Shown: positions 5,426 to 34,350, numbered from the stretch's first letter. The stretch: DNA of 35,675 nt from Candidatus Micrarchaeaceae archaeon (GCA_038730205.1 JAVYRW010000002.1:1-35675), one strand, 5' to 3'. Made by a program: numbers and translations. The notes: a model not told the origin generated them from the letters alone.

Positions 5426-8400
5426 ATGAAAAATAAACTTTTGTTTAATTTATTATTTTTTTCAATTATACCCCTATTTATTTTTTCAAGTATATCTGGA
5501 GCTTCAAATCCCTATCAACCTTCAGTCATACTTAATGACAATGTAAGTAATACTTTAGTTTCAAATGTTCCGGTATTTACTACATATTTAAAAAACATAT
5601 CAACAAACGCAACAATATCCGAAAAAACATTTAATCAAAATCAACTTCCTGCAATAATATACATGCCAAATCAAACAATGCTTTATTACAAATTAGCCTG
5701 TAGTTTTACAACTGGCTCAACTACTCATTATTATCAAAATTATTCTATTAATACAGTTAATCTTCCTTGTACTGATTATTATTATGCTCTTTCAGGTTCA
5801 GAAACATTATTTTATTCGAATGGAACCACTTCTCAATATAATATTTCAACACAATCAATTACTCCAACACAACCAAATTATTCCTCAGGTGGCAGCGGGT
5901 TAGTTTCTAATTACAATGTATCTCAATTAACAAATTCTGCAACAGCCTCTTCTCAATCAATCACACAAGCATATACAAACATACTAAATCAAGCATTAAC
6001 AGGTCAAAACAGTACTACTAATTCTACATCTATTAATCAAATTTCAAACCTAATTCCTATAACTCCAGCAACAATAAATATACCTCCCCAAACTTTAATA
6101 ATACCTTTAAAAAATGGCGAACAGATAACAATAAACATACCAGAAATATCCGAGCAAATGAATGTGAGTAGTGCAATTCAAGCTGCATTTCAGTCTTCAA
6201 TGCAATCATCAATAGATACCGCAATGCAACAAGCGTCTTCTAATTTACAATCAGCCATTCAATCAGATATACAATCATCTATACAATCTAGTTTAGGTAG
6301 CACTCAAGAAACATCTGGTTTCGGCGCTGCACTTTCAGGTTCAATTTCTTCAGCAATGTCAGTAGCAATAGAGAATGAGATGTACTCCGCTCTTTCAGGT
6401 CAAATAGGTCAAAGTATAACCTCACAAACAATACCTCAGTTAGTATCAATGGCACAAGCAACAATATCCTCTAATTTAGAATCACAATTAAATACATATA
6501 TTTATCAAGGAATATACTCACTTGAACCTACAATGAGTTCTTCAGAGGTACAATCATTAACTGATTCAATAATTCCATCTGTAGTTACCGGCACAGAGTC
6601 ATCTATTGATAATTATATTACTTCGGCATTTTATTCTAATACTGGTTCTCTAATAACTCCCCAATTATTAAACACAATTTCTACACAGGCAAGCACATCA
6701 ATAATTGGTAGTGCAACAGGTTATCTTGGAAGTTACATTAACTCAAATGAACAAAACATAATTTCACAACTTCCAACACCAATAGCAAATCAACAATTTA
6801 CATCAATTATCTCATCTGCAATAACATCTAATTTAAACACAGCATTACAAAGTTCTTTACAAAACGCATTTAATGGTCAGTTCCAAACTCTTATTCAAAA
6901 TAATCTTCAAACTGGTCTCTCTAGTTTACCTACTTCTCTTCCTACACAATTAACAAACGCTGAAGTACAAAGTCTTTCATCTTCATTATCCTCTTCATTA
7001 TCACAAAGTTTAACTCAAAGTCTTAGCTCATCATTAAGTCAATCACTATCTCAAAATCTTGCATATGGTTTATCTCAAGATATATCTCAAAGCATTTCAT
7101 CTTCACTATCACAATCACTTAGTCAATCAATATCTCAAACATTTTCACAATCGTTTTCACAAAGTATAGCTCAAAGCATCTCATCTTCATTATCACAATC
7201 ATTATCACAATCATTATCCCAGGAAGTACTTAATGTAATACCGCAACAATTATCCTCATCATTTACTTCTTCATTAGAACAACAACTTGCTCCTACAATA
7301 GGTTCATCTTTAGCATCTCAAATAGGTTCAAATCTTCAAGCAGGTTTAGAACAAAGCATATCTTCCTCTATACAACAAAGTCTTTCAAGCAGTTTTGAAC
7401 AAAATATTCAGAACTCTTTATCTTCTAATTTAGAAAGTAATATTTATCCACAATTTCAAAACAATTTATTTAATAATATGAATAATTATTTGCAGCAACA
7501 ACTTCCTCAATCAATAAGCTCTTCATTGAATACAGCAATATATCAAGGCATTCAATCAAATCTACAAAATTATATATCACAAGATTTGTCTCAAAATATA
7601 CAAAGTTCATTACAAAATTCATTATCAACATTATTACCACAGTCTTTAGCAAGTAATTTAGGTACATCGATAACCGAATCAGTAGTACAATCTTTGTCAT
7701 CTTCATTATCAGAATCATTATCCCAAACATTACAAAATGGATTAAGTAATGGTTTATCACAATCAATAGGTCAATCACTTAGTCAATCATTAAGTTCAAG
7801 TCTTTACTCTTCATTTTCTACAACTCTTCCACAAACTATTTCAACATCATTAACTTCTGGAATAACTTCATATTTAGGAAGTTCATTATCCTCTAGTATA
7901 GGTCCATCATTAGCTTCATCGATAGACTCTTCTCTTTCAGGAGCACTACAAAACTCAATTTATAATGGTTTTTCAAACGGTTTAACATTACAATTACCGT
8001 CAACCTTATTTAATTATTTAGGTAGTTCTTTATCATCAACACTTTTATCTAGTATTTCAAGCTCGATAAGTTCCTCAATATCTCAATCAATAATTAGTAT
8101 TTTGCCTAACTCATTTTCTTATATAGCTTCACAAGCTATAACTAGTAATATAAATAATTTAGTTAACGGAATAGGAAACGGAATAGGTACCGGCGTTTTT
8201 TCATCAAGTACCATAACCTCAATAACTAATGGAGTTTCAATTTCTATAAGTCAAACTGTACCTACTGCTATATCCTCTGCTCTTTCAAGTGAGTTATCAA
8301 ATTATCTTCCTGGATCTTTAGGAAGTAGTTTAGGTTCTTCAATCGGACAATCTTTATCTACTTCAGTTGTTTCATCTATTAGTAATACATTTGGTTCTGC

Positions 8401-11400
8401 ATGGGCAAACTCGGGTACAAGTACAACTTCAGCAATTACTTCTTCATTGTCTACAAATCTTCAATCTACAGTAACTAACTATATGGGTTCACTTACAGGA
8501 TCAATTCAACAATCTATAAATAATTACTTAGCTAATGGTCTTTCATCATACTTAACTGGTGAGCTTTCAAGTAGCTTACAATCTATTCTTGGAAATAACG
8601 CCGCAAAAGCAATACAAATAGCATCTACTATATATAATGCATACTCAGATTACTCTTCATATTTCCAAAGTTCATCAGCTTCAATCGCATCATCATTGCT
8701 TTCAACAAGTTGGCTTTCAATATGGGGTGTTTTAGCTACCGGTAATTTTCCATTAGGTGAGTCTTTTCAAACAACATACTCCGGAGCACAAAATGATAAA
8801 ATAGTTCAAACTACATCACAAACATATCAAACATCTCAAGTAAATTCTATAAACGCAAATAATATTCAAGACTCAGAAACATATTTATCATGTCCAACTA
8901 CTATAACTAATAACAATCCAACAAACATATTTACAAATCCGGGTTCATTTGTAGGTGGGAATCAATGTATAAATCCAGTAAATTCATTAACAACACAACT
9001 TCAAATAACAACTTATGTTCATGATAGATTTTTTATACCATTCTCTACGGTAGGCGGTTTATCGATAACAAATCCTGGATTTACATTAGCTGATGTTATT
9101 TCTTATACTCCCGAGATAGATGGCGAGTTATCTAACGGTTTTTCAACAACATCTTATATATTCCAAAATGTACCTTCATTTGCGCAACATGCATTATGGT
9201 CTTGGAGTACACCTTATCCTAATTTTGCAAATGCTAAATCAACCTCTGCTACCTATACAAACGGATTCCAATTCTTGCCTTTAGTCGTTTGTAACTACAT
9301 GTTTACTTATTCAGTAACTACTAACTTAAATTGGATTAAAAATATTGACATACCATTTGAGTATTTAGGTTCTAACGGAGCAATTTTAAATGTAGGAACA
9401 CCTATACTTCCAGATTTAACTTATAATTTTAACATATCTCTTAAGAATCAAAATGGGGTTGCAGAACCAAATCTTACTAACTTTAGGTATTCTACAATAA
9501 CACCTTATCATTATTCTACACCTCAAAATACATTAGAACCATTTCCAATAACCTTACAAGGAACATTTATAGCTGCTTATAATTCTTCAGGTTCATCACC
9601 ATACGGCAGTTATGAATTTAATAGAACTGGAGAAGGAATAAATACAAATACACAAAAAGCTTATCAATTTATGTCATCAAACGATCAAATGATTTCAATA
9701 GCATCTTTACCTAACGATTACATATATGTTCTTTATTTAAATAAATCAAATGCAGGGGAAATCTTATTAACATCACAACAAGGAAATTATGATAATAACT
9801 ATGCAAATGTTACAAACGAATCTATTTCTCAAAATCCATCTCAAAACAATAGTTTGTCATTTACAAAAGAAACAAATGCTTACCAAAATAATTCTAAATA
9901 TACTGAATCATTTCAAAGTACATATAATCCTCAAATAACTGCTATATTAAATCCGTCTACTAATCAATTAACCATTCAAGGTTCTGGATTCGAACCTACG
10001 GGTTCCGTTTCTTATTATATTGTTCCTTATGTTGGTTCTCCTACTACACAATCTAACTACGATGGTCAAGTTCTTCAAAAAGGTACGGTAGAAAATTATG
10101 TTAATTCTTCAGGAAGCTTCACTAAACAAATAACCTTATCAAGTTCATTAACTAATTATCCTTATCAAATATATTTAGAAGAACAGGTAGCAATAACTTC
10201 ATCTATTGAAACCCTTGGAGGAGCTGTTCAACCTTACAATTATTATTTCTCTAATTACGCAACAATCTCTCCAAATCCTTATATAAATGCAGTTTACACT
10301 GGAAAAAGTAATACATTTTCAATAACAGGTTCACAATTTACTCCTGATAACTCTGTAACTTTAAGCTATGAAATTTTATCGACATCAAGTAGTGGTGGAT
10401 TCTTAAATGGCGCTCCGCGTTTTTATGGAACAACCTCAGTAATAGCAACAAGTACTGGTGGTATATCTGCGACACTTCCTGTTTATCCGTCAAATCAATC
10501 TTATATTGCATCAATATCGGCAATAGATTCATATACAAAAACATCGAGTAACAAAGTAAATATTCAAGTAAGTTCATCAAACAAAGTTGAAAAATCTTTA
10601 GGTACTTATGACATAGCAGTCTTCAGAGTTTACAATAATACTTATTATAACACAACAATTCCATTACCCAATAACGATATTTCATGTGGATCTTCTAGTT
10701 CTGGTTGCCAAAGTATATGGAATACAGAATGGGATAATTATTGGTCAACAATTATAGATAAAGGAGGAGGAAATATAGAACAAGTTAATAATATACCTTT
10801 ACACATAAATGACATTGTAAATCCGATATCAACGTACAGGGCATTTAATTTGTATAATATATCTCTAGATTATCAAGGAGATATTTTTATAGCAAGTACA
10901 GAAACATATGATGGCGTAACAAACAGTTTAATAATGAAATATACAAATAGAAACGATGTTTCTCCAAATGTAAATACATTAAATAATTTATATTGTACTT
11001 CTATTTCATGTTTAACACCCTCATTTAATTACAAAGATACAATAAATAACAATCAATTAAATGAAATAGCCGTCTCGCCTAACGGTGCACAAGTTTATCT
11101 TGCATCACCACAAATAGGTGCAATATATGTGTTTAGTGGTAATGATCTTTCATATTCAAGTACGATAAATTTAGGTTTCTTTAAAGATTCTTCAGGAGCT
11201 CCACCTTCACCAACAACCTCTTCATCAAATCCAATAGGTACTCCTGCTCTAGCTTCATTGAATATTTACTACTGGTTACAAAACGGTGGTCTTTATGGTC
11301 AAACACCTGATTGGTTAAGTAGCTATAACCTACAACCTACCTATGATTTAGATAAAAATTCATTTCACAGGCCTTTAGCTATAAGAGATATTAATGGATA

Positions 11401-14317
11401 TCTTTATGTATTAGACAACTGGGCAGGCATAATAGGTTATCCTTCACAAGGAAGTAGTACTTACTCTAGTATATTTTCATCACCAGCACAGGGCATATAC
11501 TTTAATATGTTGATGCTTCGTGTAATCAACTCAACTGGTTATGATGTACCAATACAACCTACAAACTTTAATGATATGTTCCAACAAGATACATGTGCAG
11601 TAGCAAATACCACACAAGCAAGTACTTGTTACTCAAATGTCCCTCCAAGTAATTATTGTGTACAAGCAGCACAAAATAGTGGAAATTACTGTATACCTCA
11701 ACCAATCACATCTTTATCTAGCAGACTTTACTGTGAACCAGGATCTATATACTATGGTCAATCATCATTTCAGTTCCAATGCGTATCATCTGGATCATTA
11801 TCTCCTAACTATTATCAAACAGCATCAGCATCATTATACCCTTCAAATACATTTCCACCATACGGTTGGATATTAAGTGCAACAGTATCTGGTTATAACG
11901 GCAATAACAATCCAAAAACATTCAGCTTGTTCGGTGAATCGCAGTATTATTATACTCCAAAAGGAACATGGCTTTTAGGAGGTTACTCTTCTAAAGAAGG
12001 CTATTATCCAATAGGTCCAGAACTGCCTCAACTTCAATGTTCTTCAGGTTTTACTTCTAATTATTGTACAGTACCTCAATTAGAAGGTGTAGGCTTTTCA
12101 ATAAATTATAACAATACTATTGCAATACTTACAGACGGCGGAAATGGTAACCCATCCCAAAATATAGCTAATCTGGTTTATGGGGAGTTAATAATATCTA
12201 GATTTAATATCTTCAATTATACTAATGTTGGTGGTGGTGTAAATTATGTTTGTTATGCTGGACAATACTCTGGCGAACCTTATGGTTCAGGCCCTTGTCA
12301 AATAGCCCCTCAACTTTTTGGAGGTACAAACTCAGGAACTCCTATATTGAGTCCACCTATATATTTAGGTAATAATCCATTCAATTATTATGAATCATTA
12401 GGTGCCCAAAAAGTATTTCAATACGCTAATAATTTATATTCTACATATGGCAGCGGCAAGGGAAGTCCATCGGCAGAAGAAAGTAGTAATTATAATCAAC
12501 AATGTATTAATGAAGTAACAAATGGTCTTACTCCAAGCAACTGTGTTAATGGTTATCCAACTTCATTACCATTAACAAGTATAACTAGTGGAATAACTTC
12601 TGTTACAACTGCAAAACCAATACCTCCATCTGTACCTATACTTGAAAGTAGTATTAGCGGTTTTTCAATAGTTCCTTATGCATATCAAACAACAATAAAA
12701 CAAAGTTGGACAAACTTTAGATTGATATTTGGACTTCCATACTGTCCGGGCTCATTACCTTCTGTTTATTTAAGTAATACACAGACAAATTACGGTTATG
12801 TCTCTACAGCACAAGAAACATCATCCTCATTAACTGCACCAATAGAAGGAGGAAGGAGTTATCTTTCATATGAAAATGCATATCAATCTGGATATTATGT
12901 GCCTAATCTTTCTGATGTAGGTGTTTATTTATCACCACAAATATTCCTTAATATAACTGGTAATAGGTTGTTTTCTGAGTTATATGTTAACGCTACTGAG
13001 TCATTAAATACAAATAAACAATATATTTTAAACGCAACTCAACAAATTAATTACATTGTAAACTTCAATAAAATAGGCAGTAATATGGAGTTCGAAACTA
13101 TAACCTCAAAATCAGTATCACTAACCACACCATCAGCAGCCAATTTACCTTATACTAATAACGTCCCTATAAATACCGGTCTATCCTATACTCCTGTATT
13201 AGTACCTCCTCCTGGTTTTGGAGAAGTTAATTTGTTTAATTGGTATCAACAAATAGTTTATGATAGTCCAATACAACTTTATCTAAATGGATCTTTTGGA
13301 AATATACCTTACGGTTATCATCGATTAATTTTTGTATTCAAAGACAGATTTAATAACACTATTTATGCACCAGTAGACGCTGATATAGCAAGATTAACTG
13401 CAATAAATTTGAGTGTAAATCCAACAGTAGATCCTGCAAATGCTAATCAAACTTCATTAAATATCAACGGAACGGCCGGTTATTATGCAATAAATGCATT
13501 AGGAAATAACTTTTATCCTTTACAAAATGGTTATGTATATTTATATTATGGTCAGAATATTGATTATAATGGAATAAATCCGACAAAAACTGTTGGGACC
13601 GGAAGTGTGCTTTCTGCACAGATGTGTGCATTCGGAACTCCAGGTTCAGTAGGATATCCTAAACAATGTATTTTAGCAAATCCATTAAACGCATCAGAAT
13701 CATTTTCTGGAAATATTATAACATATGCTCCTCAATTTAATAATAAAGGTGAATGTAATACGGCACAGCAGAGCATTATTAATATACCTACTCCTAACTG
13801 TAACATATATACAAATGCAGTATGTCCTATAGGTTCAAACGGACAACATCAGTACTGTGATCCGATTAGTTTTTCAGGAAATGGTTTATGTACAAGCCAA
13901 TTAGGACTTATGGATATAGCAAAAACAAATAGCAATGGACAGTTTTCATTTAATACAGTTGCTTGTGGCATAACACAGTCTCAAGTAATTGCAGATTACT
14001 ATGGTTATCCAGCTCCTGAGCCTGTAATAGCCCAACAATCATTTTTACCAAGCGCAGCTAATCCATCATCTACACAATATACACAATTCTACGTTTACAA
14101 TTACTCCTGGATGCCAAACGAAACAATAACTTTAACACAAATAGGTTTATTTGAGCTTTCATATGGTAATCTAACTATATACGGTATAATTTTAGTAGTT
14201 TTAATAATTATATTATCAATATTCTTAAGAAATAAATCTCAGAAAAGAAAAAGAGTTAATAAATCAAACAAAAATTCAAAAGTAATAAACAACCGTTCAC
14301 GAAGTAAAAAAACTTAG
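5426..14317 (+). CDS. Giant (2963 aa) secreted, C-terminally membrane-anchored cell-surface protein with a Ser/Gln-rich low-complexity region, NHL/YVTN-like beta-propeller blades and Ig-like modules
   Basis: An 8.9-kb uninterrupted ORF in an AT-rich genome is unlikely by chance. The N-terminus has a Sec-type signal peptide (MKNKLLFNLLFFSIIPLFIFSSISGA). The C-terminus has a TM helix (IYGIILVVLIIILSIFL) followed by a polybasic tail (RNKSQKRKRVNKSNKNSKVINNRSRSKKT). Propeller-like blades are EIAVSPNGAQVYLASPQIGAIYVF and RPLAIRDINGYLYVLDNWAG. Ig-like segments are LTIQGSGFEPTGSVSYY and FSITGSQFTPDNSVTLSY. There are Cys-rich C-terminal modules and very many N-x-S/T sequons. Confidence 0.9.
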   Translation: MKNKLLFNLLFFSIIPLFIFSSISGASNPYQPSVILNDNVSNTLVSNVPVFTTYLKNISTNATISEKTFNQNQLPAIIYMPNQTMLYYKLACSFTTGSTTHYYQNYSINTVNLPCTDYYYALSGSETLFYSNGTTSQYNISTQSITPTQPNYSSGGSGLVSNYNVSQLTNSATASSQSITQAYTNILNQALTGQNSTTNSTSINQISNLIPITPATINIPPQTLIIPLKNGEQITINIPEISEQMNVSSAIQAAFQSSMQSSIDTAMQQASSNLQSAIQSDIQSSIQSSLGSTQETSGFGAALSGSISSAMSVAIENEMYSALSGQIGQSITSQTIPQLVSMAQATISSNLESQLNTYIYQGIYSLEPTMSSSEVQSLTDSIIPSVVTGTESSIDNYITSAFYSNTGSLITPQLLNTISTQASTSIIGSATGYLGSYINSNEQNIISQLPTPIANQQFTSIISSAITSNLNTALQSSLQNAFNGQFQTLIQNNLQTGLSSLPTSLPTQLTNAEVQSLSSSLSSSLSQSLTQSLSSSLSQSLSQNLAYGLSQDISQSISSSLSQSLSQSISQTFSQSFSQSIAQSISSSLSQSLSQSLSQEVLNVIPQQLSSSFTSSLEQQLAPTIGSSLASQIGSNLQAGLEQSISSSIQQSLSSSFEQNIQNSLSSNLESNIYPQFQNNLFNNMNNYLQQQLPQSISSSLNTAIYQGIQSNLQNYISQDLSQNIQSSLQNSLSTLLPQSLASNLGTSITESVVQSLSSSLSESLSQTLQNGLSNGLSQSIGQSLSQSLSSSLYSSFSTTLPQTISTSLTSGITSYLGSSLSSSIGPSLASSIDSSLSGALQNSIYNGFSNGLTLQLPSTLFNYLGSSLSSTLLSSISSSISSSISQSIISILPNSFSYIASQAITSNINNLVNGIGNGIGTGVFSSSTITSITNGVSISISQTVPTAISSALSSELSNYLPGSLGSSLGSSIGQSLSTSVVSSISNTFGSAWANSGTSTTSAITSSLSTNLQSTVTNYMGSLTGSIQQSINNYLANGLSSYLTGELSSSLQSILGNNAAKAIQIASTIYNAYSDYSSYFQSSSASIASSLLSTSWLSIWGVLATGNFPLGESFQTTYSGAQNDKIVQTTSQTYQTSQVNSINANNIQDSETYLSCPTTITNNNPTNIFTNPGSFVGGNQCINPVNSLTTQLQITTYVHDRFFIPFSTVGGLSITNPGFTLADVISYTPEIDGELSNGFSTTSYIFQNVPSFAQHALWSWSTPYPNFANAKSTSATYTNGFQFLPLVVCNYMFTYSVTTNLNWIKNIDIPFEYLGSNGAILNVGTPILPDLTYNFNISLKNQNGVAEPNLTNFRYSTITPYHYSTPQNTLEPFPITLQGTFIAAYNSSGSSPYGSYEFNRTGEGINTNTQKAYQFMSSNDQMISIASLPNDYIYVLYLNKSNAGEILLTSQQGNYDNNYANVTNESISQNPSQNNSLSFTKETNAYQNNSKYTESFQSTYNPQITAILNPSTNQLTIQGSGFEPTGSVSYYIVPYVGSPTTQSNYDGQVLQKGTVENYVNSSGSFTKQITLSSSLTNYPYQIYLEEQVAITSSIETLGGAVQPYNYYFSNYATISPNPYINAVYTGKSNTFSITGSQFTPDNSVTLSYEILSTSSSGGFLNGAPRFYGTTSVIATSTGGISATLPVYPSNQSYIASISAIDSYTKTSSNKVNIQVSSSNKVEKSLGTYDIAVFRVYNNTYYNTTIPLPNNDISCGSSSSGCQSIWNTEWDNYWSTIIDKGGGNIEQVNNIPLHINDIVNPISTYRAFNLYNISLDYQGDIFIASTETYDGVTNSLIMKYTNRNDVSPNVNTLNNLYCTSISCLTPSFNYKDTINNNQLNEIAVSPNGAQVYLASPQIGAIYVFSGNDLSYSSTINLGFFKDSSGAPPSPTTSSSNPIGTPALASLNIYYWLQNGGLYGQTPDWLSSYNLQPTYDLDKNSFHRPLAIRDINGYLYVLDNWAGIIGYPSQGSSTYSSIFSSPAQGIYFNMLMLRVINSTGYDVPIQPTNFNDMFQQDTCAVANTTQASTCYSNVPPSNYCVQAAQNSGNYCIPQPITSLSSRLYCEPGSIYYGQSSFQFQCVSSGSLSPNYYQTASASLYPSNTFPPYGWILSATVSGYNGNNNPKTFSLFGESQYYYTPKGTWLLGGYSSKEGYYPIGPELPQLQCSSGFTSNYCTVPQLEGVGFSINYNNTIAILTDGGNGNPSQNIANLVYGELIISRFNIFNYTNVGGGVNYVCYAGQYSGEPYGSGPCQIAPQLFGGTNSGTPILSPPIYLGNNPFNYYESLGAQKVFQYANNLYSTYGSGKGSPSAEESSNYNQQCINEVTNGLTPSNCVNGYPTSLPLTSITSGITSVTTAKPIPPSVPILESSISGFSIVPYAYQTTIKQSWTNFRLIFGLPYCPGSLPSVYLSNTQTNYGYVSTAQETSSSLTAPIEGGRSYLSYENAYQSGYYVPNLSDVGVYLSPQIFLNITGNRLFSELYVNATESLNTNKQYILNATQQINYIVNFNKIGSNMEFETITSKSVSLTTPSAANLPYTNNVPINTGLSYTPVLVPPPGFGEVNLFNWYQQIVYDSPIQLYLNGSFGNIPYGYHRLIFVFKDRFNNTIYAPVDADIARLTAINLSVNPTVDPANANQTSLNINGTAGYYAINALGNNFYPLQNGYVYLYYGQNIDYNGINPTKTVGTGSVLSAQMCAFGTPGSVGYPKQCILANPLNASESFSGNIITYAPQFNNKGECNTAQQSIINIPTPNCNIYTNAVCPIGSNGQHQYCDPISFSGNGLCTSQLGLMDIAKTNSNGQFSFNTVACGITQSQVIADYYGYPAPEPVIAQQSFLPSAANPSSTQYTQFYVYNYSWMPNETITLTQIGLFELSYGNLTIYGIILVVLIIILSIFLRNKSQKRKRVNKSNKNSKVINNRSRSKKT
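6971..7222 (+). repeat. Degenerate 12-nt / tetrapeptide repeat (S-Q-S-hydrophobic)n inside the giant gene
   Basis: The translation reads SLSSSLSSSLSQSLTQSLSSSLSQSLSQNLAYGLSQDISQSISSSLSQSLSQSISQTFSQSFSQSIAQSISSSLSQSLSQSLSQ. All six Ser codons and several Leu codons are used, so the repeat is conserved at peptide level rather than DNA level. Confidence 0.85.
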
Positions 14318-14326
14318 ACTTAAATT

Positions 14327-14452
14327 TTATTCTTCGTCGTCTTCGTCTTCTTCCCAGTCGTCGTCTGAGTCATCTTCGCTTTCATCATCCCAGTCGTCAT
14401 CGTCTGAGTCATCTGCTAACTGCTTTCTAGCTATAGGGTATATTGTTACCAT
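14327..14452 (-). CDS. Unannotated 41-aa hyperacidic micro-protein (MVTIYPIARKQLADDSDDDDWDDESEDDSDDDWEEDEDDEE)
   Basis: It runs ATG (14450-14452, minus) to TAA (14327-14329) and falls below the ORF-track length cutoff. By my count 56 of 126 nt are G/C (44%), within an otherwise very AT-rich 300-nt spacer. The motif DDSDDD(D)W is duplicated in one frame. A TATA-like TTTATAAT lies about 32 nt upstream on the minus strand. Confidence 0.55.
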   Translation of the reverse strand: MVTIYPIARKQLADDSDDDDWDDESEDDSDDDWEEDEDDEE

Positions 14453-14480
14453 ATATATCACTGTAGATATTTAGATAGGT

Positions 14481-14488
14481 ATTATAAA
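14481..14488 (-). promoter_or_regulatory. Candidate TATA box (TTTATAAT on the minus strand) for the acidic micro-ORF
   Basis: The plus strand reads attataaa. The element is centred about 32 nt upstream of the minus-strand ATG at 14452, which fits a leaderless or short-leader transcript. Confidence 0.3.
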
Positions 14489-14586
14489 TAAAATATTTAA
14501 ATCTATTGGATTTTGTTTTTTACAAAAATTCATAGATATTTAAATTAAAAAATACTAGAAATCAACAAAGATATAAAAACATAAAC

Positions 14587-14594
14587 TATATAAT
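14587..14594 (+). promoter_or_regulatory. Candidate TATA box (TATATAAT) for tRNA-Ala
   Basis: It is centred about 28 nt upstream of the tRNA 5' end at 14619, the typical archaeal TATA-to-TSS spacing. Confidence 0.4.
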
Positions 14595-14618
14595 CTTTAA
14601 AGTCAAATATTCAAACAT

Positions 14619-14723
14619 GGGCTTGTGGCGCAGCGGCAGCGCGCCCGCTTTGCAAGTAATTAAAAAAAGTTTTATTGAAACCAAACAAGCGGAAGGTCGC
14701 GGGTTCGAATCCCGCCAAGTCCA
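14619..14723 (+). tRNA. tRNA-Ala (anticodon UGC) with a 33-nt intron at canonical position 37/38
   Basis: The cloverleaf was folded by hand. Acceptor GGGCTTG/CAAGTCC includes the Ala identity pair G3:U70. D-stem is GCGC/GCGC, anticodon stem CCCGC/GCGGA, anticodon TGC at 14651-14653, T-arm GCGGG-TTCGAAT-CCCGC, discriminator A, and no CCA is encoded. A 4-bp helix TTTG (14649-14652) / CAAA (14682-14685) is flanked by two 3-nt CA|A bulges, a canonical bulge-helix-bulge core. Confidence 0.9.
14655..14687 (+). other. tRNA-Ala intron (33 nt, BHB-type)
   Basis: This is the sequence between position 37 (A14654) and position 38 (A14688). The A/A junction makes the exact boundary ambiguous by 1 nt. Confidence 0.8.
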
Positions 14724-14877
14724 GTATTTTAATTAAATATTTATATAAAATTAACATCAGATAATTTTAATATATAACTAATACTATTTAATTGTTAAAA
14801 TATTATTTTATATTTTTATTTATTACTAAATTTATATATTAATGTTAATTACATAATAATTAAAACTTTAGATTTTT

Positions 14878-15369
14878 ATGTCACAAACTCAATTTATAAC
14901 TTCAGGTTTATCACTACAAGATATAGGTATACTTCTTGTTATAGTTATATTATACATTATATATAGAATTTATAAAAACACAAAAGGAATTCAGTATACT
15001 CAAAAAAATATATATCGTGGGCCTGTAATATATTTAATTTTAGTATTTTTAGGATTGCTATCATTTAATACTAATTATATTGATTTTATAATAGTAATTT
15101 TTTCAATAATTTTAGGTTATTTTATAGGGAGAAAGTTATCTGTTGGTGTAAAATTTTTTGAAAAGAACGGTATCACATTTTACAAAAGATCTCCATTAAT
15201 ACTTGAAATATGGCTTATATCTTTTTTAGCAAGATTCATAATTGAAATATTATATCCTAACATATTTATTTTATCTTTAATAACTGAAATTATTTTAGCA
15301 TTAACTACCGGTTTGATTTTAGGAGAAGCATATCATATTGTAATTTCACACAAACAAAAGAAAAATTAA
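14878..15369 (+). CDS. Small polytopic membrane protein (4-5 TM), tentatively DUF1453/CcdC-like
   Basis: The 163-aa product has hydrophobic segments IGILLVIVILYIIY, VIYLILVFLGLL, FIIVIFSIILGYFIG, LILEIWLISFLARFII and LITEIILALTTGLILG. The segment FFEKNGITFYKRSP followed by a TM helix resembles my recollection of CcdC-family proteins. This was not verified. Confidence 0.6.
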   Translation: MSQTQFITSGLSLQDIGILLVIVILYIIYRIYKNTKGIQYTQKNIYRGPVIYLILVFLGLLSFNTNYIDFIIVIFSIILGYFIGRKLSVGVKFFEKNGITFYKRSPLILEIWLISFLARFIIEILYPNIFILSLITEIILALTTGLILGEAYHIVISHKQKKN

Positions 15370-15448
15370 GTAATTATCTATGTAAAAATAAGTAGTATTA
15401 TTAAACTATATAAATATGATGTGAATATTATACTTCATAGATGTTTTG

Positions 15449-17554
15449 ATGAAAGGTATACTTTTTACAACAGATGCGATTTTTTCATTATTAATAGTTG
15501 CATTCGCAATTACAATCCTTTCCTACTTCGTTTTTACTCCAGATTCAAATTTAAACATAAGTTTTTCTAAAGTAGATTCAATTCTTTCTTTATTTACTTC
15601 TACAAACATTAAAACATTATCAGCACAAAGTTCTTTTAATAATAATTTATTACGAACTGTAGAACAAAGTCAATGGACACAAATTGGCGAAAATTCTTCC
15701 AGGTCATATACTAATCCTTCTGGACCAAATTATCCATTTATTCTTTACTCATATTATGTTCCTAATGGTATTACTACTAATTTGGTAAGTTCATTTGGAA
15801 CCATCTATTTCGGATCAAAAAATCAAATTTTTGCAATAAACAGTAGCACAGGAAAAACAAGTTGGATAAATACACCATTTATAACTTCAAATACTGTTTT
15901 ACAACCTAACTCATTAAACATCTATTCTGGTCAACTTATCTACACTAATGGGACTCAAGTTCATGCCGTTTCATTAAATAATGATAGCTATATTTGGAAT
16001 TATTCATTAACTAATAATTATGTTATAACCTCTTCTCCTTTAATTTTTAATAATCAAATTTACTTTGGTGCTTCAGATGGTTCAACATATCAAATATACT
16101 CAATAAATACATTTAATGGATCATTTTCAAAAAATGTTATAACTCAATTTCCAATACTTTATTTAGGTCAATTAAATGGTTCTATAATAGCTACGGATTT
16201 AAATGGCAATATGCTTTCAATGAACTTTAATAGCACATTAATGTCAAAAATTGCACAAAGTGGTCCCACAATTCCATTTACTACCCAGGGTTCTTATATT
16301 ACTCTTGAAAACGGAACCCAATTTTGTAAATCTTCTGCATCATTTGTAGAAGAATGTACTCCACACGGACTCACAACTAACTTTGCAATTTCCAAAAGCG
16401 AATATAACAATTTAAGACTTCTTCCTAATGAATTATTCGATATAGAAAAACCCGGGACTTTAAATTGGGTTTATAATACAAATTTAAATACAGGAAATAC
16501 AGTAGGAAATCCAATAATATCTAATAATACTGTTTATACTATTTGGAATGACGGTTTTATTCTTGCAAATAATTTATCTAACGGCGACTTAATTTTTAAA
16601 ACTCAAACACCTTCAAATACTTTAAAATCAATGATACTTTCTGATGGTATATTGTCAGTGGCTTCTGCAAATCATATTTACTCATTTGGAAGTTGTTTTT
16701 CAAATACAAATGCAAGTTTAGTATACGCATTAACCTATTTATACTCAAAAGGTTTTGGTAGCTGTGCAACCTATTTATCTTACTCGGAATATCCATCAGA
16801 TAATTACGGTGTTCAAATTAACGGGGTGTATGGGCCTTCAAATACACTTTTACAGTATTCTGGAAACTCTTTTACAGAATTTAATGATACTATTAATGTC
16901 TATACACTTTATTTGGGTTCCGGCGGATCAGGTCTTTCTTTAGGAAGTGGATTTACACCAAACACTTGGTACTCAATTGGAGTTGTAAATAATGTTTCTC
17001 TTGGAACTATTTCTCTGTATATAAATGGTAAAGAAATCAATAGTCAATCGTCAACTATATCTAATGATTACTCTTTATCAGAATGGATTTATCCACAAAA
17101 TACAGTTTCATTACAATATATTAACGGAATGTTTGCTAGTTTTGGAGCGGATAATAGCTTATTAGTCGGTTGCGCATCAGTTCCATGTATAAACGGTTTT
17201 AATGGTATTATAACTAATTTACAACTTTATTCAGGCACCCTTACTTATAGTAATTTATCTAATATTTATCAAGAAGGTATAGCAAACTATCCTGTTTCAA
17301 ATATGGGTCTTTATGCGTGGTTACCTTTAGAAGGAGATACTAATGATTATTCCGGATTAGGACATACTGGTTATAACTCAAATGTTACATATACTTATTT
17401 ACAATATACTCCTCCATTAATATCTTCTTCACAATCAATATCTCAAGTATCTATACTTTCTCCTGTAAAAAATACTCAATCAATAATAGGGGCTCCAATT
17501 TCAAGTTCACAGGGAGGTAAATTATATAAATTCGGTGTATTTACATGGCAATAA
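15449..17554 (+). CDS. Type IV prepilin-like (class III signal peptide) surface protein with PQQ-like beta-propeller and LamG/ConA-like domain
   Basis: The N-terminus MKG|ILFTTDAIFSLLIVAFAITIL has a basic residue and Gly followed by a roughly 20-aa hydrophobic helix with an FxxDA-type motif. Propeller repeats are IYFGSKNQIFAINSSTGKTSW, QVHAVSLNNDSYIW, QIYFGASDGSTYQIYSINTFNG and NTVYTIWNDGFILANNLSNGDL. The LamG_3-type end motif is GFNGIITNLQLYSGTLTYSNLSNIYQEGI. The ORF track starts at TTG 15446, but the ATG at 15449 is preferred. Confidence 0.7.
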   Translation: MKGILFTTDAIFSLLIVAFAITILSYFVFTPDSNLNISFSKVDSILSLFTSTNIKTLSAQSSFNNNLLRTVEQSQWTQIGENSSRSYTNPSGPNYPFILYSYYVPNGITTNLVSSFGTIYFGSKNQIFAINSSTGKTSWINTPFITSNTVLQPNSLNIYSGQLIYTNGTQVHAVSLNNDSYIWNYSLTNNYVITSSPLIFNNQIYFGASDGSTYQIYSINTFNGSFSKNVITQFPILYLGQLNGSIIATDLNGNMLSMNFNSTLMSKIAQSGPTIPFTTQGSYITLENGTQFCKSSASFVEECTPHGLTTNFAISKSEYNNLRLLPNELFDIEKPGTLNWVYNTNLNTGNTVGNPIISNNTVYTIWNDGFILANNLSNGDLIFKTQTPSNTLKSMILSDGILSVASANHIYSFGSCFSNTNASLVYALTYLYSKGFGSCATYLSYSEYPSDNYGVQINGVYGPSNTLLQYSGNSFTEFNDTINVYTLYLGSGGSGLSLGSGFTPNTWYSIGVVNNVSLGTISLYINGKEINSQSSTISNDYSLSEWIYPQNTVSLQYINGMFASFGADNSLLVGCASVPCINGFNGIITNLQLYSGTLTYSNLSNIYQEGIANYPVSNMGLYAWLPLEGDTNDYSGLGHTGYNSNVTYTYLQYTPPLISSSQSISQVSILSPVKNTQSIIGAPISSSQGGKLYKFGVFTWQ

Positions 17555-20500
17555 AAAATAATTTATTTATTTATTTAATTATATTCTCAAAAAGTTCTAA
17601 AAAAGGACAGCTTTTTACATTAACAACTTTAATACTTTTTATATTAATGTTGTCTGTATTATTTTCATTTGTTTTTATCGAAACTCAATATTACTCTCAA
17701 CAACAAAATATTGCTATTTCATCAGGACAATTAAATATTTTACAATCAATAAATACAACCGCAAGAGAATTCGGATCAGATTCATCAAAACAAGCACTTT
17801 CTGTACTTTCTTATTATGAATATAATGCAAGTATGAGAAATGATAATTTCATAAATAATTTAACTTTATATTTGCATTATTTAATCTCTAACGGTACGCT
17901 CCCAAATGTGAAATCAAATTCACCCTCAGCAGCATATCTAAGTAATGCTATGGGTAATTTAACATTTTCACAATATAATCAATCACTTGTTAATTATTAC
18001 AGTTCTTTAGGTATACAATCGGTAAATGAAACAAACTTTCAAATATCTCAATCTAATCCCTATACGTTATCATTAAATTATATAGAAAATATAATTTTTA
18101 ATCAAACAGGAATTCCATCAAAATATACTTTGCCTGTAAATATAAATATAAATCTTACTGGAAAATATGATTTATTTTATCTGCAACAAGGAATATTAAG
18201 AAATATAAATTTTGCAAATATAAATAATCAAACACAAGTAATAACGGGAGGTTATGCTGTTTCAGGTTCTAACTTCGGTGAACAATACGGTACTGTAGTT
18301 TTAGTAACTGACAATTCGTGTCCATCTTATACTACTGCAGAAGAATCAAGCATGATACTTGTAGCAAATCAATTATCTGGACTTAGTTCTTGTTACAACA
18401 ACTTCGAAGGTGTAATAACAAATCAAAGTGAAAATTTTTTAACGATCCCTTACTTAATTTATTCACAAAACACAGTATTAACAAATTATTTCTTAAACGG
18501 AACAAATATAGAACTTTATCCTAAACAATTAGAAGCTTTAAACATACAAAATTTAATTAATTCAGTATCTAACAATTACTATTTTACTTCACCTTTTACC
18601 TCTTCGTATATTCAAAGAGCTTCAGATATTGTCAATTCATCTAATTATGGTATATTTAATCTTCCAAATAATGAAAGAACCGTAGCAACATTTAATGGTT
18701 TAACTGATATTGTATTATCGCCTTCAGCTAATTTAAAAGTCCCAGTATCAAATAATGGCTTATCAATAAACTTATGGGTTCTTCCTGGTAATTTTGAGCA
18801 AAACAACGCCGGATTAATAACAACAGGTGCAGGATGTGGCATTAATCTATTATTTGCAACTGCAAATAAAATTCAGACTACAAATAATTGTGGTAATTTT
18901 CAAACAGGAAGTTATCAATTTACTCCAAATGTTTGGTATGATATAGGTTTAACAATAACGTCTGGTTCTTCTCCAACTTTATCATTATATGTAAATGGGA
19001 ATCAAATAGTTAGTTCAGCTACATTTTTTTCATCAGGAACCTCTTGGACAACCATGTACTTAGGAAGTAATTTAGGCTCAGAGTTTTTTAACGGTTCTTT
19101 ATCTAATATACAAATATACAACACATCTCTTTCTAAACCTTCTATGTTTTTACTTTATAAAAGAAACCTCAATGGGCTTCCTATTTCAAATAATGGTTTA
19201 GTCGGTTGGTGGTCTTTGAATGGCAATACTAAAGATTTAAGCGGTCAAAACACTATTACAACTTCATCAACAGTAGCATTTACAAATAAAATCAACGGTT
19301 TACCAACAATCAATGTAACTTACTTTAACGGAGTTAATTCTTATTTTTCATTACCTGCAGAGGTATTTAATTATATAACAAGTGGAAGTGGAAATACATA
19401 TACATCTTCTTTCGCAATTTGGTTTAAATCTACAAGCGATGGTGTAATTTTAGGACAACAAAATACTCAAGTTGGGTCATCTCCTTCTGGTTTTGTACCA
19501 TCAATATATTTAGATACAAACGGTATTTTAAGATCAAGTTTATTTTGGCATGGTTCACCTTCTGATCAAATAGTATCTACAACTCCTTATAATGATGGTA
19601 ATTGGCATTTACTTGTTGATACGTACTCAAATGGAATTGAAACATTGTATGTAGATGGTAAGGAAATAGGTACGGATTCTTATCCAGAACAAAGTTACTC
19701 AAGTACATATTTTTATCAATTAGGTACTGGATACACTTCAACATGGCCATCGGCACAAACTGGTTGGTTTTATTTTAAAGGAGAGTTAGCAAATGCACAG
19801 GTATACAGTACATTATTATCGCCACAACAAATACAGCAAATGTATAATGCTGGAGTAAGTTCGGGGCCTATAAGCTTTTCTGGCTTAACTGGTTGGTGGC
19901 CACTAAATGATAACTTTAACGATGTAATTAATACTGAACCTTTAAGTTATCCAAACGGGGTGACATTTACTTCTCTTAACGGTTCAGTAATAACTTCGCA
20001 AAACGATAATCTAAATTCAGTTAAAGTTCCTGGAATTTATTGTACAAATGAATTTTCCTGTTTTGATTCTAATACTGGTGGTGTATATTTGGGAAATTCT
20101 CCATTAGTAATTGGTTCTAAATTACAGGTAGCTCAATTTAAAACATATTCATTTATAACAGCTAATATTCCTTTATCTGGAAATTTTGGTTTATCTATGT
20201 GGGTTCTTCCTGGTAAAACAACTTCAGAAGAGTATCCAGTAAGTTTTTCTGGAGTTAACGGAATAACTATCACAACTTCTTCAGGAATAAATAAATTTGT
20301 TTTAACTGATGGCGTTAATACACTTTCATCAACATCAATAAATCCTATGTCTTGGTATTATGTTGCAGTCACAAAAAACGGAAATTCTTATACATTATAT
20401 CTAAATAATACTGAAGAAGGCACTTCTAACATGGCAACAATTCCAATAAACAACTTTACATTAGGTTCTTTGTTTAATTTAGCCGATGGTTTCAATGGTT

Positions 20501-20778
20501 CTATATCGAATGTTCAATTATATTCTAATACATTATCCACTTCACAAGTTCAAACACTTTATAATGAAGGTATATACGGTTCACCACTTAACTCAAATGT
20601 TGTAGCCTGGTTTAATTTAAATGGTAATTGTTATAATTATACATTTAGTCAATACAATTGTTATTTATCGAGAAATGTTACATATCCCTATTTATATGGT
20701 AATTATAGTGCACCAAATTATCCTATACAAACTGTAGAAAATGGCTATCAGGCACTAGGATACGGTACTAAACCTTAA
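17545..20778 (+). CDS. Type IV prepilin-like (class III signal peptide) surface protein with three LamG/ConA-like lectin-type domains
   Basis: The KKGQ|LFTLTTLILFILMLSVLFSFVFI motif lies near the N-terminus. Three modules each end in the LamG_3 signature: FFNGSLSNIQIYNTSLS, FKGELANAQVYSTLLSPQQIQQMYNAGV and GFNGSISNVQLYSNTLSTSQVQTLYNEGI. Modules begin with W-x-L-x-G-type strands (LVGWWSLNGNTKDLSG, LTGWWPLNDNFNDV). The gene overlaps the upstream gene by 10 nt (ATGGCAATAA). Confidence 0.7.
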   Translation: MAIKNNLFIYLIIFSKSSKKGQLFTLTTLILFILMLSVLFSFVFIETQYYSQQQNIAISSGQLNILQSINTTAREFGSDSSKQALSVLSYYEYNASMRNDNFINNLTLYLHYLISNGTLPNVKSNSPSAAYLSNAMGNLTFSQYNQSLVNYYSSLGIQSVNETNFQISQSNPYTLSLNYIENIIFNQTGIPSKYTLPVNININLTGKYDLFYLQQGILRNINFANINNQTQVITGGYAVSGSNFGEQYGTVVLVTDNSCPSYTTAEESSMILVANQLSGLSSCYNNFEGVITNQSENFLTIPYLIYSQNTVLTNYFLNGTNIELYPKQLEALNIQNLINSVSNNYYFTSPFTSSYIQRASDIVNSSNYGIFNLPNNERTVATFNGLTDIVLSPSANLKVPVSNNGLSINLWVLPGNFEQNNAGLITTGAGCGINLLFATANKIQTTNNCGNFQTGSYQFTPNVWYDIGLTITSGSSPTLSLYVNGNQIVSSATFFSSGTSWTTMYLGSNLGSEFFNGSLSNIQIYNTSLSKPSMFLLYKRNLNGLPISNNGLVGWWSLNGNTKDLSGQNTITTSSTVAFTNKINGLPTINVTYFNGVNSYFSLPAEVFNYITSGSGNTYTSSFAIWFKSTSDGVILGQQNTQVGSSPSGFVPSIYLDTNGILRSSLFWHGSPSDQIVSTTPYNDGNWHLLVDTYSNGIETLYVDGKEIGTDSYPEQSYSSTYFYQLGTGYTSTWPSAQTGWFYFKGELANAQVYSTLLSPQQIQQMYNAGVSSGPISFSGLTGWWPLNDNFNDVINTEPLSYPNGVTFTSLNGSVITSQNDNLNSVKVPGIYCTNEFSCFDSNTGGVYLGNSPLVIGSKLQVAQFKTYSFITANIPLSGNFGLSMWVLPGKTTSEEYPVSFSGVNGITITTSSGINKFVLTDGVNTLSSTSINPMSWYYVAVTKNGNSYTLYLNNTEEGTSNMATIPINNFTLGSLFNLADGFNGSISNVQLYSNTLSTSQVQTLYNEGIYGSPLNSNVVAWFNLNGNCYNYTFSQYNCYLSRNVTYPYLYGNYSAPNYPIQTVENGYQALGYGTKP

Positions 20779-20858: not shown

Positions 20859-21731
20859 ATGTTACCGGAATGGTTATCAATAAAGCCTGCATCAACAGAA
20901 AAATATTCTGTAATAAAAGAAACAATTGCAAAAAGAGGTTTGCATACCGTTTGTAGTGATGCTCATTGTCCTAACGCTTCCGAATGTTGGAGTTCTGGCA
21001 CTGCAACTTTTATGGTATTGGGAGGTTTATGTACAAGGGGTTGTAGATTCTGCGCGGTTAAAAAAAGTGCAACTGGCGAAAAACCAAACCTTAATGAACC
21101 ATTTCTACTTGCTAAATCAATAAAAGAGTGGGGTTTAGATTATGTAGTAATAACCTCTGTGTGTAGAGACGATCTTCCAGATCAAGGAGCTTCTCATTTT
21201 GCCAATTGTGTTGTTGAAATAAAAAAACAAAACCCAAATACATTTGTAGAGTTGTTAATACCTGATTTTTCTGGAGATATTTCATTATTAAAAGTGATAA
21301 CTGATTCAAAACCTGATGTTATAGGTAATAACTTAGAGACGGTAAGAAATTTATCCAAAAAAATTCGTGATAAAAGGGCCGATTATGATCAAACACTTTC
21401 GTTATTAAAAAATATTAAGAAATTAAATAATAAAATATTTACAAAATCTGCAATAATGTTGGGAATGGGAGAAACTTCAAATGAAATACTAGAAACCATG
21501 GAAGATTTGCGCAATAATAAAGTTGATTTTCTTGCAATGGGCCAGTATCTACGCCCGTCTCAATTTCATACAGAGGTAAAAGAGTATGTAACTCCTGAAA
21601 AATTTTCATACTTTAAAAAAATAGCAGAAGAAAAAGGATTTTTATTTGTTGCCTCAGGCCCTTTCGTAAGAAGTTCTTACAAAGCAGGAGAGTTCTTTAT
21701 AAAAAGTTTAAAAAACACAAATTATCTATAA
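20859..21731 (+). CDS. lipA: Lipoyl synthase (radical SAM)
   Basis: The auxiliary cluster motif is CSDAHCPNASEC (Cx4Cx5C), the radical-SAM motif is CTRGCRFC (Cx3Cx2C), and the C-terminal RSSY motif is present (FVRSSYKA). Confidence 0.9.
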   Translation: MLPEWLSIKPASTEKYSVIKETIAKRGLHTVCSDAHCPNASECWSSGTATFMVLGGLCTRGCRFCAVKKSATGEKPNLNEPFLLAKSIKEWGLDYVVITSVCRDDLPDQGASHFANCVVEIKKQNPNTFVELLIPDFSGDISLLKVITDSKPDVIGNNLETVRNLSKKIRDKRADYDQTLSLLKNIKKLNNKIFTKSAIMLGMGETSNEILETMEDLRNNKVDFLAMGQYLRPSQFHTEVKEYVTPEKFSYFKKIAEEKGFLFVASGPFVRSSYKAGEFFIKSLKNTNYL

Positions 21732-22468: not shown

Positions 22469-22740
22469 TCTTTCATCTCTAGAATGGCATTTGTTATTGA
22501 AATATTATCAATACCAATAATCTCTATATTATTTTTTTCTAAACATAATTTTATTTGTAATTCAATTTTACTTCTTTCAATAGCACAACCGATTAAACTT
22601 TTTTCTAAAAGTTCTAAACCATTATCAGGATAAACAAAAAAATCTCCTAAAATCTTTATATTATCTATTTTATCTGAAAAATCTAATCTAATCTCAAAAA
22701 GTTTCCCATTTTTAATTTTATATTTTTTAACTTTATACAT
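22465..22740 (-). CDS. lplB: Stand-alone lipoate-protein ligase C-terminal domain protein (LplB-like)
   Basis: The 91-aa product contains GKLFEIRLDFSDKIDNIKILGDFFVYP, typical of the LplA C-terminal domain. It lies immediately upstream of lplA with an ATGA stop/start overlap (22465-22468), the split arrangement known from Thermoplasma acidophilum. Confidence 0.7.
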   Translation of the reverse strand: MYKVKKYKIKNGKLFEIRLDFSDKIDNIKILGDFFVYPDNGLELLEKSLIGCAIERSKIELQIKLCLEKNNIEIIGIDNISITNAILEMKE

Positions 22741-34331: not shown

Positions 34332-34350
34332 CATTATTAATGGTGTATTA

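Follow-up and report, generated by a model that had tools for sequence, protein, structure and literature searches.

We analyzed a 35,675-nucleotide stretch of DNA from a Candidatus Micrarchaeaceae archaeon (here called the window, with positions counted from its first nucleotide), which has a G+C content of ~30%. An earlier, sequence-only reading had singled out four open reading frames (ORFs) for envelope proteins on the plus strand, estimated that they fill about 40% of the window, and proposed that they form a single 15-kb attachment or host-interaction apparatus. The four ORFs were found as placed, at 5426-14317 (a giant protein), 14878-15369 (a protein of 163 amino acid residues), 15446-17554 and 17545-20778, and together they occupy ~41% of the window. 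The last two, here termed genes D and E, are the subject of this work. They share an overlap of 10 nucleotides (17545-17554, plus strand; ATGGCAATAA), which agrees with the reading. Both genes encode large proteins with predicted class III (prepilin-type) N-termini, and their orthologues stand beside type IV pilus-like assembly genes in other genomes. These relatives are named Candidatus Micrarchaeia/Micrarchaeota, in line with the guess that the window comes from a DPANN archaeon.

Gene D (p3; 15449-17554, plus strand) encodes a protein of 701 residues. The ORF opens at 15446, which would give 702 residues, and the true start is almost certainly the ATG at 15449 because all orthologues begin with MKG. 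The gene of about 700 residues given in the sequence-only reading was therefore retained with a corrected start. The protein consists of the three-residue leader MKG, a hydrophobic helix, a PQQ/BamB-like beta-propeller of the eight-bladed type, and one LamG domain. In the predicted class III signal (15449-15541, plus strand), cleavage would fall between Gly3 and Ile4, and the sequence continues with ILFTTDAIFSLLIVAFAITILSYFVF. The hydrophobic segment spans residues 1-33. The propeller (approximately residues 96-415; 15734-16693, plus strand) was matched by the Pfam families PQQ_2 (E 1e-8, above the cut-off) and Beta-prop_ACSF4, and by PDB profiles of designed 'Cake' propellers, 3hxj, and BamB. 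An AlphaFold2 (AF2) model of D based on seven sequences suggested, at low confidence, a strand pattern at residues 118-413 and a helix at residues 8-25. The LamG/ConA-like domain (approximately residues 470-640; 16856-17368, plus strand) remained below the Pfam threshold, with 18.5 bits to Laminin_G_3 compared to a cut-off of 27.6. The corresponding region of the orthologue in the relative L008 scored 99.6 bits, and tblastn placed LamG matches within D at 17123-17416. D combines the propeller with LamG in most genomes and is a LamG-only protein of 594 residues in L006 and L009. Six full-length relatives are 45-74% identical to the 701-residue protein.

Gene E (p4; 17545-20778, plus strand) encodes a protein of 1077 residues, with a leader of 21 residues, a long N-terminal helix, a family-specific domain of ~300 residues, and three LamG domains. 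Its predicted class III signal (17545-17688, plus strand) comprises the leader MAIKNNLFIYLIIFSKSSKKG, a predicted cleavage site between Gly21 and Gln22, and the following QLFTLTTLILFILMLSVLFSFVFI, with the hydrophobic segment at residues 20-49. The family-specific domain (approximately residues 96-378; 17830-18680, plus strand) had no match in Pfam, and its profile found nothing significant among PDB sequences. The three LamG/ConA-like modules (approximately residues 380-540, 590-770, and 860-1035; 18682-20649, plus strand) were recognized by Pfam (Laminin_G_3 in three stretches, E 3e-40), as beta-sandwiches in the AF2 model, and by Foldseek. This model had a predicted local distance difference test score (pLDDT) of 67 and placed a single helix of 75 residues at positions 19-93 (pLDDT 65-81) ahead of the globular domains. 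Foldseek returned only LamG-type matches for it (e.g., neurexin, laminin, PAPP-A, pentraxin, botulinum Hc), with neurexin LNS2-6 at E 7e-17. D and E thus carry one propeller and four LamG modules between them, the number that had been read from the sequence. A profile of the N-terminal 400 residues of E (A4), searched among 1.84 billion proteins, retrieved 346 cluster representatives, 155 of them at E<=1e-30, and the domain was nearly always N-terminal. The family occurs in Micrarchaeota and Marsarchaeota, and E ranges from ~850 to 1400 residues across genomes.

An orthologue of D followed by an orthologue of E, with the same overlap, was present in every readable contig of a close relative; the 10-nucleotide overlap was seen in L001, L005, L006, and L008. 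Gene order downstream of the pair is as in the window: lipoyl synthase, LplA, NAC, DUF424, a GT2 glycosyltransferase, a class I tRNA synthetase, and FtsZ. Upstream of the pair, the close relatives encode an inositol phosphatase and, on the opposite strand, a CBM_6 protein; neither the giant gene nor the gene of the 163-residue protein is there. In the distant relatives L006, L007, and L008, the pair is the second half of an operon B-C-D-E, where B encodes 892-1101 residues with four LamG domains and C encodes ~180 residues. This operon is convergent to a second one with the order T2SSF, T2SSF, a gene of ~230 residues, T2SSE, and a coiled-coil gene. The T2SSF genes are TadC/FlaJ-like, and the T2SSE ATPase scored 256 bits to the FlaI model. 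The D and E genes of the pilus locus are orthologues of those in the window: the 715-residue D is 26% identical over residues 1-473 (E 6e-28), and the 862-residue E is 33% identical over residues 7-581 (E 4e-56).

To place these loci in a wider frame, we used a scan for the assembly ATPase with one genome per species, followed by annotation of ORFs with BLASTP. The scan yielded 80 Micrarchaeota loci with ATPases 61-82% identical. One T2SSE and two T2SSF genes, including a complete second TadC, were present in 72 of the 80. Loci were counted as informative when the sequence continued for at least 5.2 kb past the second TadC gene (n = 46). E adjoins the second TadC in 33 of these, and C, D, and E are all present in 31. 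The tie to a type IV pilus-like system, which the sequence-only reading could offer only as inference, is therefore borne out to the extent that dozens of genomes have orthologues of the pair adjoining genes for a FlaI-type ATPase and two TadC-like proteins. The overlap is conserved throughout the phylum, being exactly 10 nucleotides in 22 of 31 D/E pairs of the census, which suggests translational coupling, with D and E made together in a fixed proportion.

Two other genes are constant in the assembly operon, each found in nearly all 80 loci. One encodes 400-450 residues with an N-terminal winged-helix-like region and a long coiled coil (L008, 17364-18575), and the other ~230 residues that match no family (L008, 15153-15839). 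In about 25 of the 80 loci, the assembly operon is directly preceded, on its own strand, by a gene for a membrane metalloprotease of the M50 (site-2 protease) family; in L040 (7957-8652), this gene encodes ~231 residues with the motif PLDGSKVL. Extra pilin-like genes occur beside the assembly operon in L038 (7698-8240), L074 (14657-15565), L080 (14435-17296), L082 (14614-15606), L075 (4627-8283), and L091 (14929-16871). They encode 180 to >1200 residues with the classical archaeal motif [KR][AG]↓QSA(M/V/I)E(F/Y)L (here and below, the arrow marks the predicted cleavage point), and the small ones are candidate major pilins. The extra gene in L091 bears InlB B-repeat (Flg_new_2) domains.

The predicted cleavage sites in the window read MKG↓ILFTTDAIFSL in D and KKG↓QLFTLTTL in E. 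All seven D orthologues start with MKG(I/V)(L/V)FTTDA(I/L)FSL(L/I)IVAFAIT(I/L/V)L, and the motif K[GA]↓xxFT(L/M/T)DA(I/V)F(A/S)L recurs across 30 genes of the D family. The N-termini of the E family consist of a variable basic leader, [KR][GA], the series Q/I/V/L-L-(M/L/F)-T-(L/I), and ~20 more hydrophobic residues. Among 168 sequences, made up of E-family representatives and seven homologues of the giant protein, 142 had [KR][GA]↓(Q/I/V/L) followed by a hydrophobic tract, after a leader of 3-29 residues (median 11). Most exceptions beyond the seven giant homologues were truncated gene calls. Conservation in both proteins peaks in the hydrophobic helix. In D, the majority-residue fraction was 0.91 over residues 1-30 compared to 0.65-0.73 over the rest of the protein. 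In E, conservation was lowest in the leader (0.37) and among the highest in the helix (0.61). A conserved helix behind a variable leader is expected of a pilin alpha-1 helix, and not of a plain membrane anchor.

The same architecture extends to the other two families of the operon. B, C, D, and E each carry [KR][GAS]↓x and a hydrophobic tract with a conserved motif specific to the family. B starts with K[AS]↓QIALEF..., with the Glu at +5 that is typical of pilins, and C with [KR][AGL]↓QFWSFD(V/A)IFA.... The motif FxxxD(A/V)IF is common to C and D, which hhalign related with a probability of 89%. No other similarity was detected by hhalign among the N-terminal regions of the four families, so we do not claim that all four are paralogous. 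A class III-like pattern was found in 38 of 50 E ORFs, 30 of 39 D ORFs, and 24 of 35 C ORFs, compared to 24 of 657 other ORFs, and ~10 of these 24 are themselves evident pilin-like genes. At +1, the E protein of the window has Gln, as do B and C in the relatives; D has I/V/F there, and many E orthologues have I/V/L. Among the sites with experimental support that PMC4371748 lists for archaeal pilins, that of EpdD (KGQL) equals the site of E, and that of UpsB (KGIS) resembles the KG↓IL of D. Based on the conserved motif and helix across orthologues, we predict that D and E have class III (prepilin-type) N-termini, as the sequence-only reading had supposed.

The pair is intact in the lineage of the window. 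Compared to the orthologues in L001, the ratio of nonsynonymous to synonymous substitution rates (dN/dS) was 0.14 for D, 0.12 for E, and 0.115 for LplA; dS exceeded 1.2, and the values are rough. D and E are under purifying selection. We considered whether the pair is a decaying remnant left after relocation and rejected this because of the dN/dS of 0.12-0.14 and the full-length ORFs in at least seven relatives. The loci with the lowest G+C content (L078 and L091, 27-28%; L037, 32%; L087, 35%) carry the assembly genes. In L087 and L091, which have enough flanking sequence, no D or E was found beside these genes. If these genomes are close kin of the window, the observations fit a move of the pair to a place beside lipoyl synthase in the low-G+C lineage to which the window belongs.

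The giant gene (5426-14317, plus strand) encodes a type I surface protein of 2963 residues, with a Sec signal, an S/Q-rich stretch, a Cys-containing body, and a C-terminal transmembrane segment. It had been described as secreted and C-terminally anchored, and this was upheld by a Sec-like hydrophobic segment at residues 3-27 (...SISGA↓SNP) and a second hydrophobic segment at residues 2908-2939 with a basic tail after it. About 900 residues are S/Q-rich and of low complexity, and the body of ~1750 residues contains Cys and N-glycosylation sequons. The matches to Pfam DUF445 and GerPC and to an NCBIfam serine-rich protein all lay within the S/Q-rich stretch and were treated as compositional because of its low complexity. 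The C-terminal 1814 residues matched no PDB sequence. The Micrarchaeota S-layer protein SLP_Mh has ~101 kDa and the S-layer N-terminal domain PF05123 (bioRxiv 10.1101/2021.04.28.441871). An S-layer protein of this type was rejected as an identity for the giant protein, which has no PF05123 match and is 2963 residues long compared to ~101 kDa.

Homologues of the giant protein are few. The orthologue in L010 keeps the upstream neighbors (Lhr helicase, Metallophos phosphoesterase, RNase H, TPR-AAA ATPase), and it is followed by a small antisense ORF, as in the window, and then by unrelated genes. This antisense ORF (14327-14461, minus strand) lies directly after the giant gene and encodes 44 residues that are extremely acidic (D/E/W-rich). 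Its counterpart in L010 (19079-19207, minus strand) encodes 42 residues in the same place, so the ORF may be a real small gene. In L040, L047, L061, L070, L072, and L083, large ORFs with a C-terminal anchor lie 4-5 kb upstream of the assembly operon and are homologous to the C-terminal 350-800 residues of the giant protein (29-35% identity, E 1e-33 to 1e-60). The order in these six loci is giant gene, membrane protein, three TrkA genes on the opposite strand, M50 peptidase, and assembly operon. A profile search for giant homologues within 10 kb of the 80 pilus loci added none to these six. The 163-residue protein (14878-15369, plus strand) has ~4-5 hydrophobic segments and is polytopic, as had been read. 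It had no match in Pfam or NCBIfam and no homologue beside the pair in L001-L009 or in the 80 pilus loci, and it formed a singleton cluster. As judged by these comparisons, it appears to be lineage-specific and not a conserved partner of the pair.

Between the antisense ORF and the gene of the 163-residue protein lies an intron-containing tRNA gene (14619-14723, plus strand; Rfam RF00005, 55.3 bits). It reads as tRNA-Ala(UGC), with an insert of 35 nucleotides within the anticodon loop and a G3:U70 pair. It is one of three such genes in the window (14619-14723, 25134-25256, and 34234-34331, all on the plus strand), whose introns of ~35-43 nucleotides lie in the anticodon loop. ARAGORN reported zero tRNAs in the window, and Rfam recovered all three. 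The window also encodes RtcB, the tRNA-splicing ligase (32564-34006, minus strand). The other neighbors are archaeal housekeeping genes and include the Lhr helicase, lipoyl synthase, LplA, NAC, FtsZ, and fibrillarin. Lipoyl synthase, an LplA-type lipoate-protein ligase, and its small C-terminal-domain protein (20859-22740) are notable for a reduced DPANN genome, and the lipoyl synthase/LplA block adjoins the D/E pair in all close relatives. Toward the end of the window, a DUF3335/Peptidase_C39-like protein is encoded (34309-35118, plus strand). Because the third tRNA gene overlaps the longest ORF for this protein, the true start is probably further downstream.

We consider it rather probable that D and E are members of a pilin-like set, B-C-D-E, which belongs to a Micrarchaeota-wide type IV pilus-like system and acts as modular minor pilins or tip adhesins. 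Each of the four proteins would be made with a class III signal, i.e., a short basic leader that ends in Gly or Ala and a hydrophobic helix of ~21-25 residues. A prepilin peptidase of the FlaK/PibD/EppA type would remove the leader. The FlaI-type ATPase and the two TadC-like platform proteins, presumably encoded elsewhere in the genome, would then pull the helix from the membrane, and the proteins would be assembled into, or atop, a filament or a short pseudopilus. The bodies of D and E are too large to pack along the shaft of a filament, hence a position at the tip is the most likely. There, D and E would most likely form, with B and C, a cap or tip complex that initiates assembly and exposes the lectin-type modules, which may bind the glycans or glycoproteins of another cell or of a surface. 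While the N-terminus stays constant, the bodies behind it are exchanged, as seen in the propeller and LamG-only versions of D and in the length range of E.

Several findings weigh against this assignment. No assembly ATPase, TadC, prepilin peptidase, B, or C gene was found in the window by homology search, as the sequence-only reading had noted for the ATPase, platform protein, and peptidase, and a regular-expression scan of the 80 loci for the A24-type motif GxGD(V/I)K found none. The pair is detached from the assembly operon in the lineage of the window, and it could therefore have taken a pilus-independent role. No pilin model of Pfam or NCBIfam matched D or E at E<=1. Both sites have Phe at +3, with which they would presumably fail the strict FlaFind pattern. 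The AF2 model of D is poor (pLDDT 41), and the globular pilin beta-domain between helix and propeller is apparently missing in D. Finally, the leader of E in the window is unusually long and partly hydrophobic. The leaders of E orthologues are hydrophilic, e.g., MEIKNNIINHLLPNLKGSKKA, and inspection of 17545-17607 revealed no ATG, GTG, or TTG nearer to the KKG↓Q site. Some of these points would also suit D and E as type II membrane proteins with an uncleaved helix, i.e., tethered lectins or scaffolds that work independently of a pilus, with linkage to the ATPase reflecting co-regulation only. The absence of pilin model matches and the place of the pair in the window and its closest relatives, beside lipoyl synthase and at a distance from any assembly gene, are what such anchored proteins would show. 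However, K/R at -2, G/A at -1, and the helix are conserved in proteins that are 25-50% identical elsewhere, while the leader varies freely, and a simple anchor would not need these positions. The same pattern also recurs in four adjacent families beside pilus assembly genes, compared to ~2% of unrelated ORFs. We therefore regard simple anchoring as improbable.

Nearer to a pilin-like role, and marginally less improbable than simple anchoring, is that D and E undergo cleavage by the peptidase and pass through the ATPase and TadC machinery but remain rooted in the membrane as a short structure, like a bindosome or pseudopilus, and not on a long pilus. Such a structure would hold the binding domains within the S-layer space, much as the class III-signal sugar-binding proteins of Sulfolobus do. 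The class III signals and the linkage to the assembly operon fit this equally well. It would also agree with the lack of a small major-pilin gene that is constant in the locus (one of 157 residues occurs in L008, and those of the QSAxEF type in few loci) and with the match of the L008 ATPase to the BasE model (E 1e-41), which was lower than that to FlaI. However, archaea frequently keep the genes of their major pilins apart from those for pilus assembly (PMC4371748), so little weight attaches to the lack of such a gene in the locus. A cultured Micrarchaeon has been seen to bear thin filaments that 'could represent archaeal pili' (PMC11329633), and four distinct pilin-like proteins look more like tip or initiation complexes than like substrate-binding proteins. 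Less likely than either is the originally proposed 15-kb apparatus of the giant protein, the 163-residue protein, D, and E. It has in its favor that the four genes lie on one strand and all encode envelope proteins, that the giant C-terminal homologue precedes the assembly operon in the six loci described above, and that C-terminally anchored, Cys-containing 'S-layer-like' proteins occur in some archaeal pilus loci (Makarova et al., PMC4858521). Yet the tRNA gene and the antisense ORF part the giant gene from the rest, so the four genes are not a single uninterrupted unit, and the giant and 163-residue genes are probably transcribed separately from the pair. The giant gene in L010 keeps its upstream neighbors and not the pair, other genes lie upstream of the pair in L001-L005 and L009, and the 163-residue protein has no homologue in the examined loci. 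A giant homologue is near only 6 of the 80 pilus loci, where the three opposite-strand TrkA genes separate it from the operon. Synteny in the relatives thus covers the D/E pair and does not extend to the giant and 163-residue genes beside it, and the single apparatus is not supported. The striking 15-kb locus is probably a chance juxtaposition of a conserved pair with an unrelated giant surface protein. We read the giant genes near pilus loci as a neighborhood shared by one subclade and not as evidence of a pilus component. The giant is probably a separate surface protein outside the pilin module, and a looser functional tie to the pilus is conceivable.

As minor pilins or tip adhesins, D and E are conserved components whose presence a known kind of system explains. 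Pili-like connections of DPANN archaea have been seen by microscopy. To our knowledge, no DPANN host adhesin has been identified. The four co-encoded pilin-like proteins with lectin and propeller modules are named, testable candidates for such adhesins, and the Micrarchaeota in culture (Mia14, Ca. Micrarchaeum harzensis, and ARM-1) can be expected to have orthologues of them. It is possible, although we would not yet favor it, that a B-C-D-E pilus cap with ~eight LamG modules and a beta-propeller is the device by which episymbionts recognize and hold glycosylated hosts. Under this tentative extension, swapping of the bodies would set the host range, and D and E would have been uncoupled from the assembly operon in the low-G+C lineage of the window.

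The set B-C-D-E recalls the bacterial core minor pilins HIJK (FimU-PilVWX, GspHIJK), where four minor pilin-like proteins are also encoded together and are thought to prime or cap the filament. The K subunit has no acidic residue in its helix, and E is the corresponding member without one in the Micrarchaeota set. The sequence-only reading had drawn a parallel to PilY1. This parallel persists in function and fold class, since in PilY1/PilC a beta-propeller adhesin is presented at the tip, as we suppose for D, and it fails for the propeller family. The PilY1-type C-terminal propeller (Pfam Neisseria_PilC / PilY1) had no match in D, where only PQQ_2, BamB, and Beta-prop_ACSF4 were found. PilY1 is a non-pilin with its own propeller family, a Sec-signal protein that docks on minor pilins, whereas D has a pilin-type N-terminus and carries a propeller of the BamB/PQQ type on its own pilin-like helix.

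The closest studied analogues of D and E are PilC and PilB (vWA module) of Streptococcus sanguinis (PMC9934059, PMC8179133). PilC, a pilin with a ConA-like lectin module, recognizes host glycans and is part of a tip complex together with PilA and PilB (PMC9934059). D and E share with it a class III signal and a pilin helix that bears a grafted adhesive module of the ConA/LamG superfamily, and in both systems the genes of several minor pilins lie side by side and the sheer size of the proteins would leave them only a place at the tip. In contrast to the bacterial proteins, those described here are archaeal and share no sequence homology outside the LamG/ConA fold class. They are also two to three times larger, with up to 3-4 LamG modules and a propeller, and D is apparently without a globular pilin moiety.

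Among archaeal systems, the locus resembles the clade-1, Epd-type loci (Methanococcus maripaludis) of Makarova, Koonin and Albers 2016 (PMC4858521), with one ATPase, two TadC, and several class III-signal proteins. The clade-1 model also places two large predicted adhesins at the pilus tip (PMC4858521). Gln at +1, as in EppA substrates, occurs in B and C of relatives and in E of the window, and neither in D nor in many E orthologues. The large proteins of that model differ in that they carry DUF2341, which was undetected in D, E, and B; its sole match was sub-threshold (17.3 bits), in the 535-residue E homologue of L009. The Micrarchaeota locus also differs from the Epd type in having no FleN/MinD or EppA gene. 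Within the Micrarchaeota, Mia14 ('Ca. Mancarchaeum acidiphilum') has two type IV pilus systems, one A24 prepilin peptidase (MIA14_0570), and an expansion of LamG-like proteins, 'some of them linked to' pilus loci (Golyshina et al. 2017, PMC5498576). Its locus MIA14_0170-0177, with an ATPase, two TadC, and the secreted component 0176, was assigned to the clade-1 group (PMC5498576). It has the same layout as the Micrarchaeota locus described here and is, by this layout, a putative orthologue. In Golyshina et al. 2017 (PMC5498576), 0174, 0175, and 0177 are not listed as pilus components, and a pilin-like nature is not stated. In the window, the D/E pair is detached from the assembly operon.

Two further archaeal surface systems are similar in part. 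In the Sulfolobus bindosome, large sugar-binding proteins have prepilin-type signals (PibD-processed) and depend on a pilus-type ATPase and a membrane protein. These are solute-binding proteins that feed ABC transporters, whereas D and E have lectin and propeller domains and no such context. TafC of the Tat-fimbriae of Haloarcula hispanica (PMC11821415; NCBIfam NF052521) is a LamG-type minor subunit of an archaeal surface filament. NF052521 matched the LamG modules of E (51.8 bits) and B (111 bits) at a cut-off of 410 bits, a resemblance at the domain level only, and Tat-fimbriae are exported via the Tat pathway and not with class III signals (PMC11821415). Compared to the cited literature, the new elements are the predicted pilin-type N-termini on the LamG and propeller proteins themselves, the four conserved families, the phylum-wide locus, and the D/E overlap. 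Archaea, like Gram-positive bacteria, may build 'modular pilins', here at a much larger scale.

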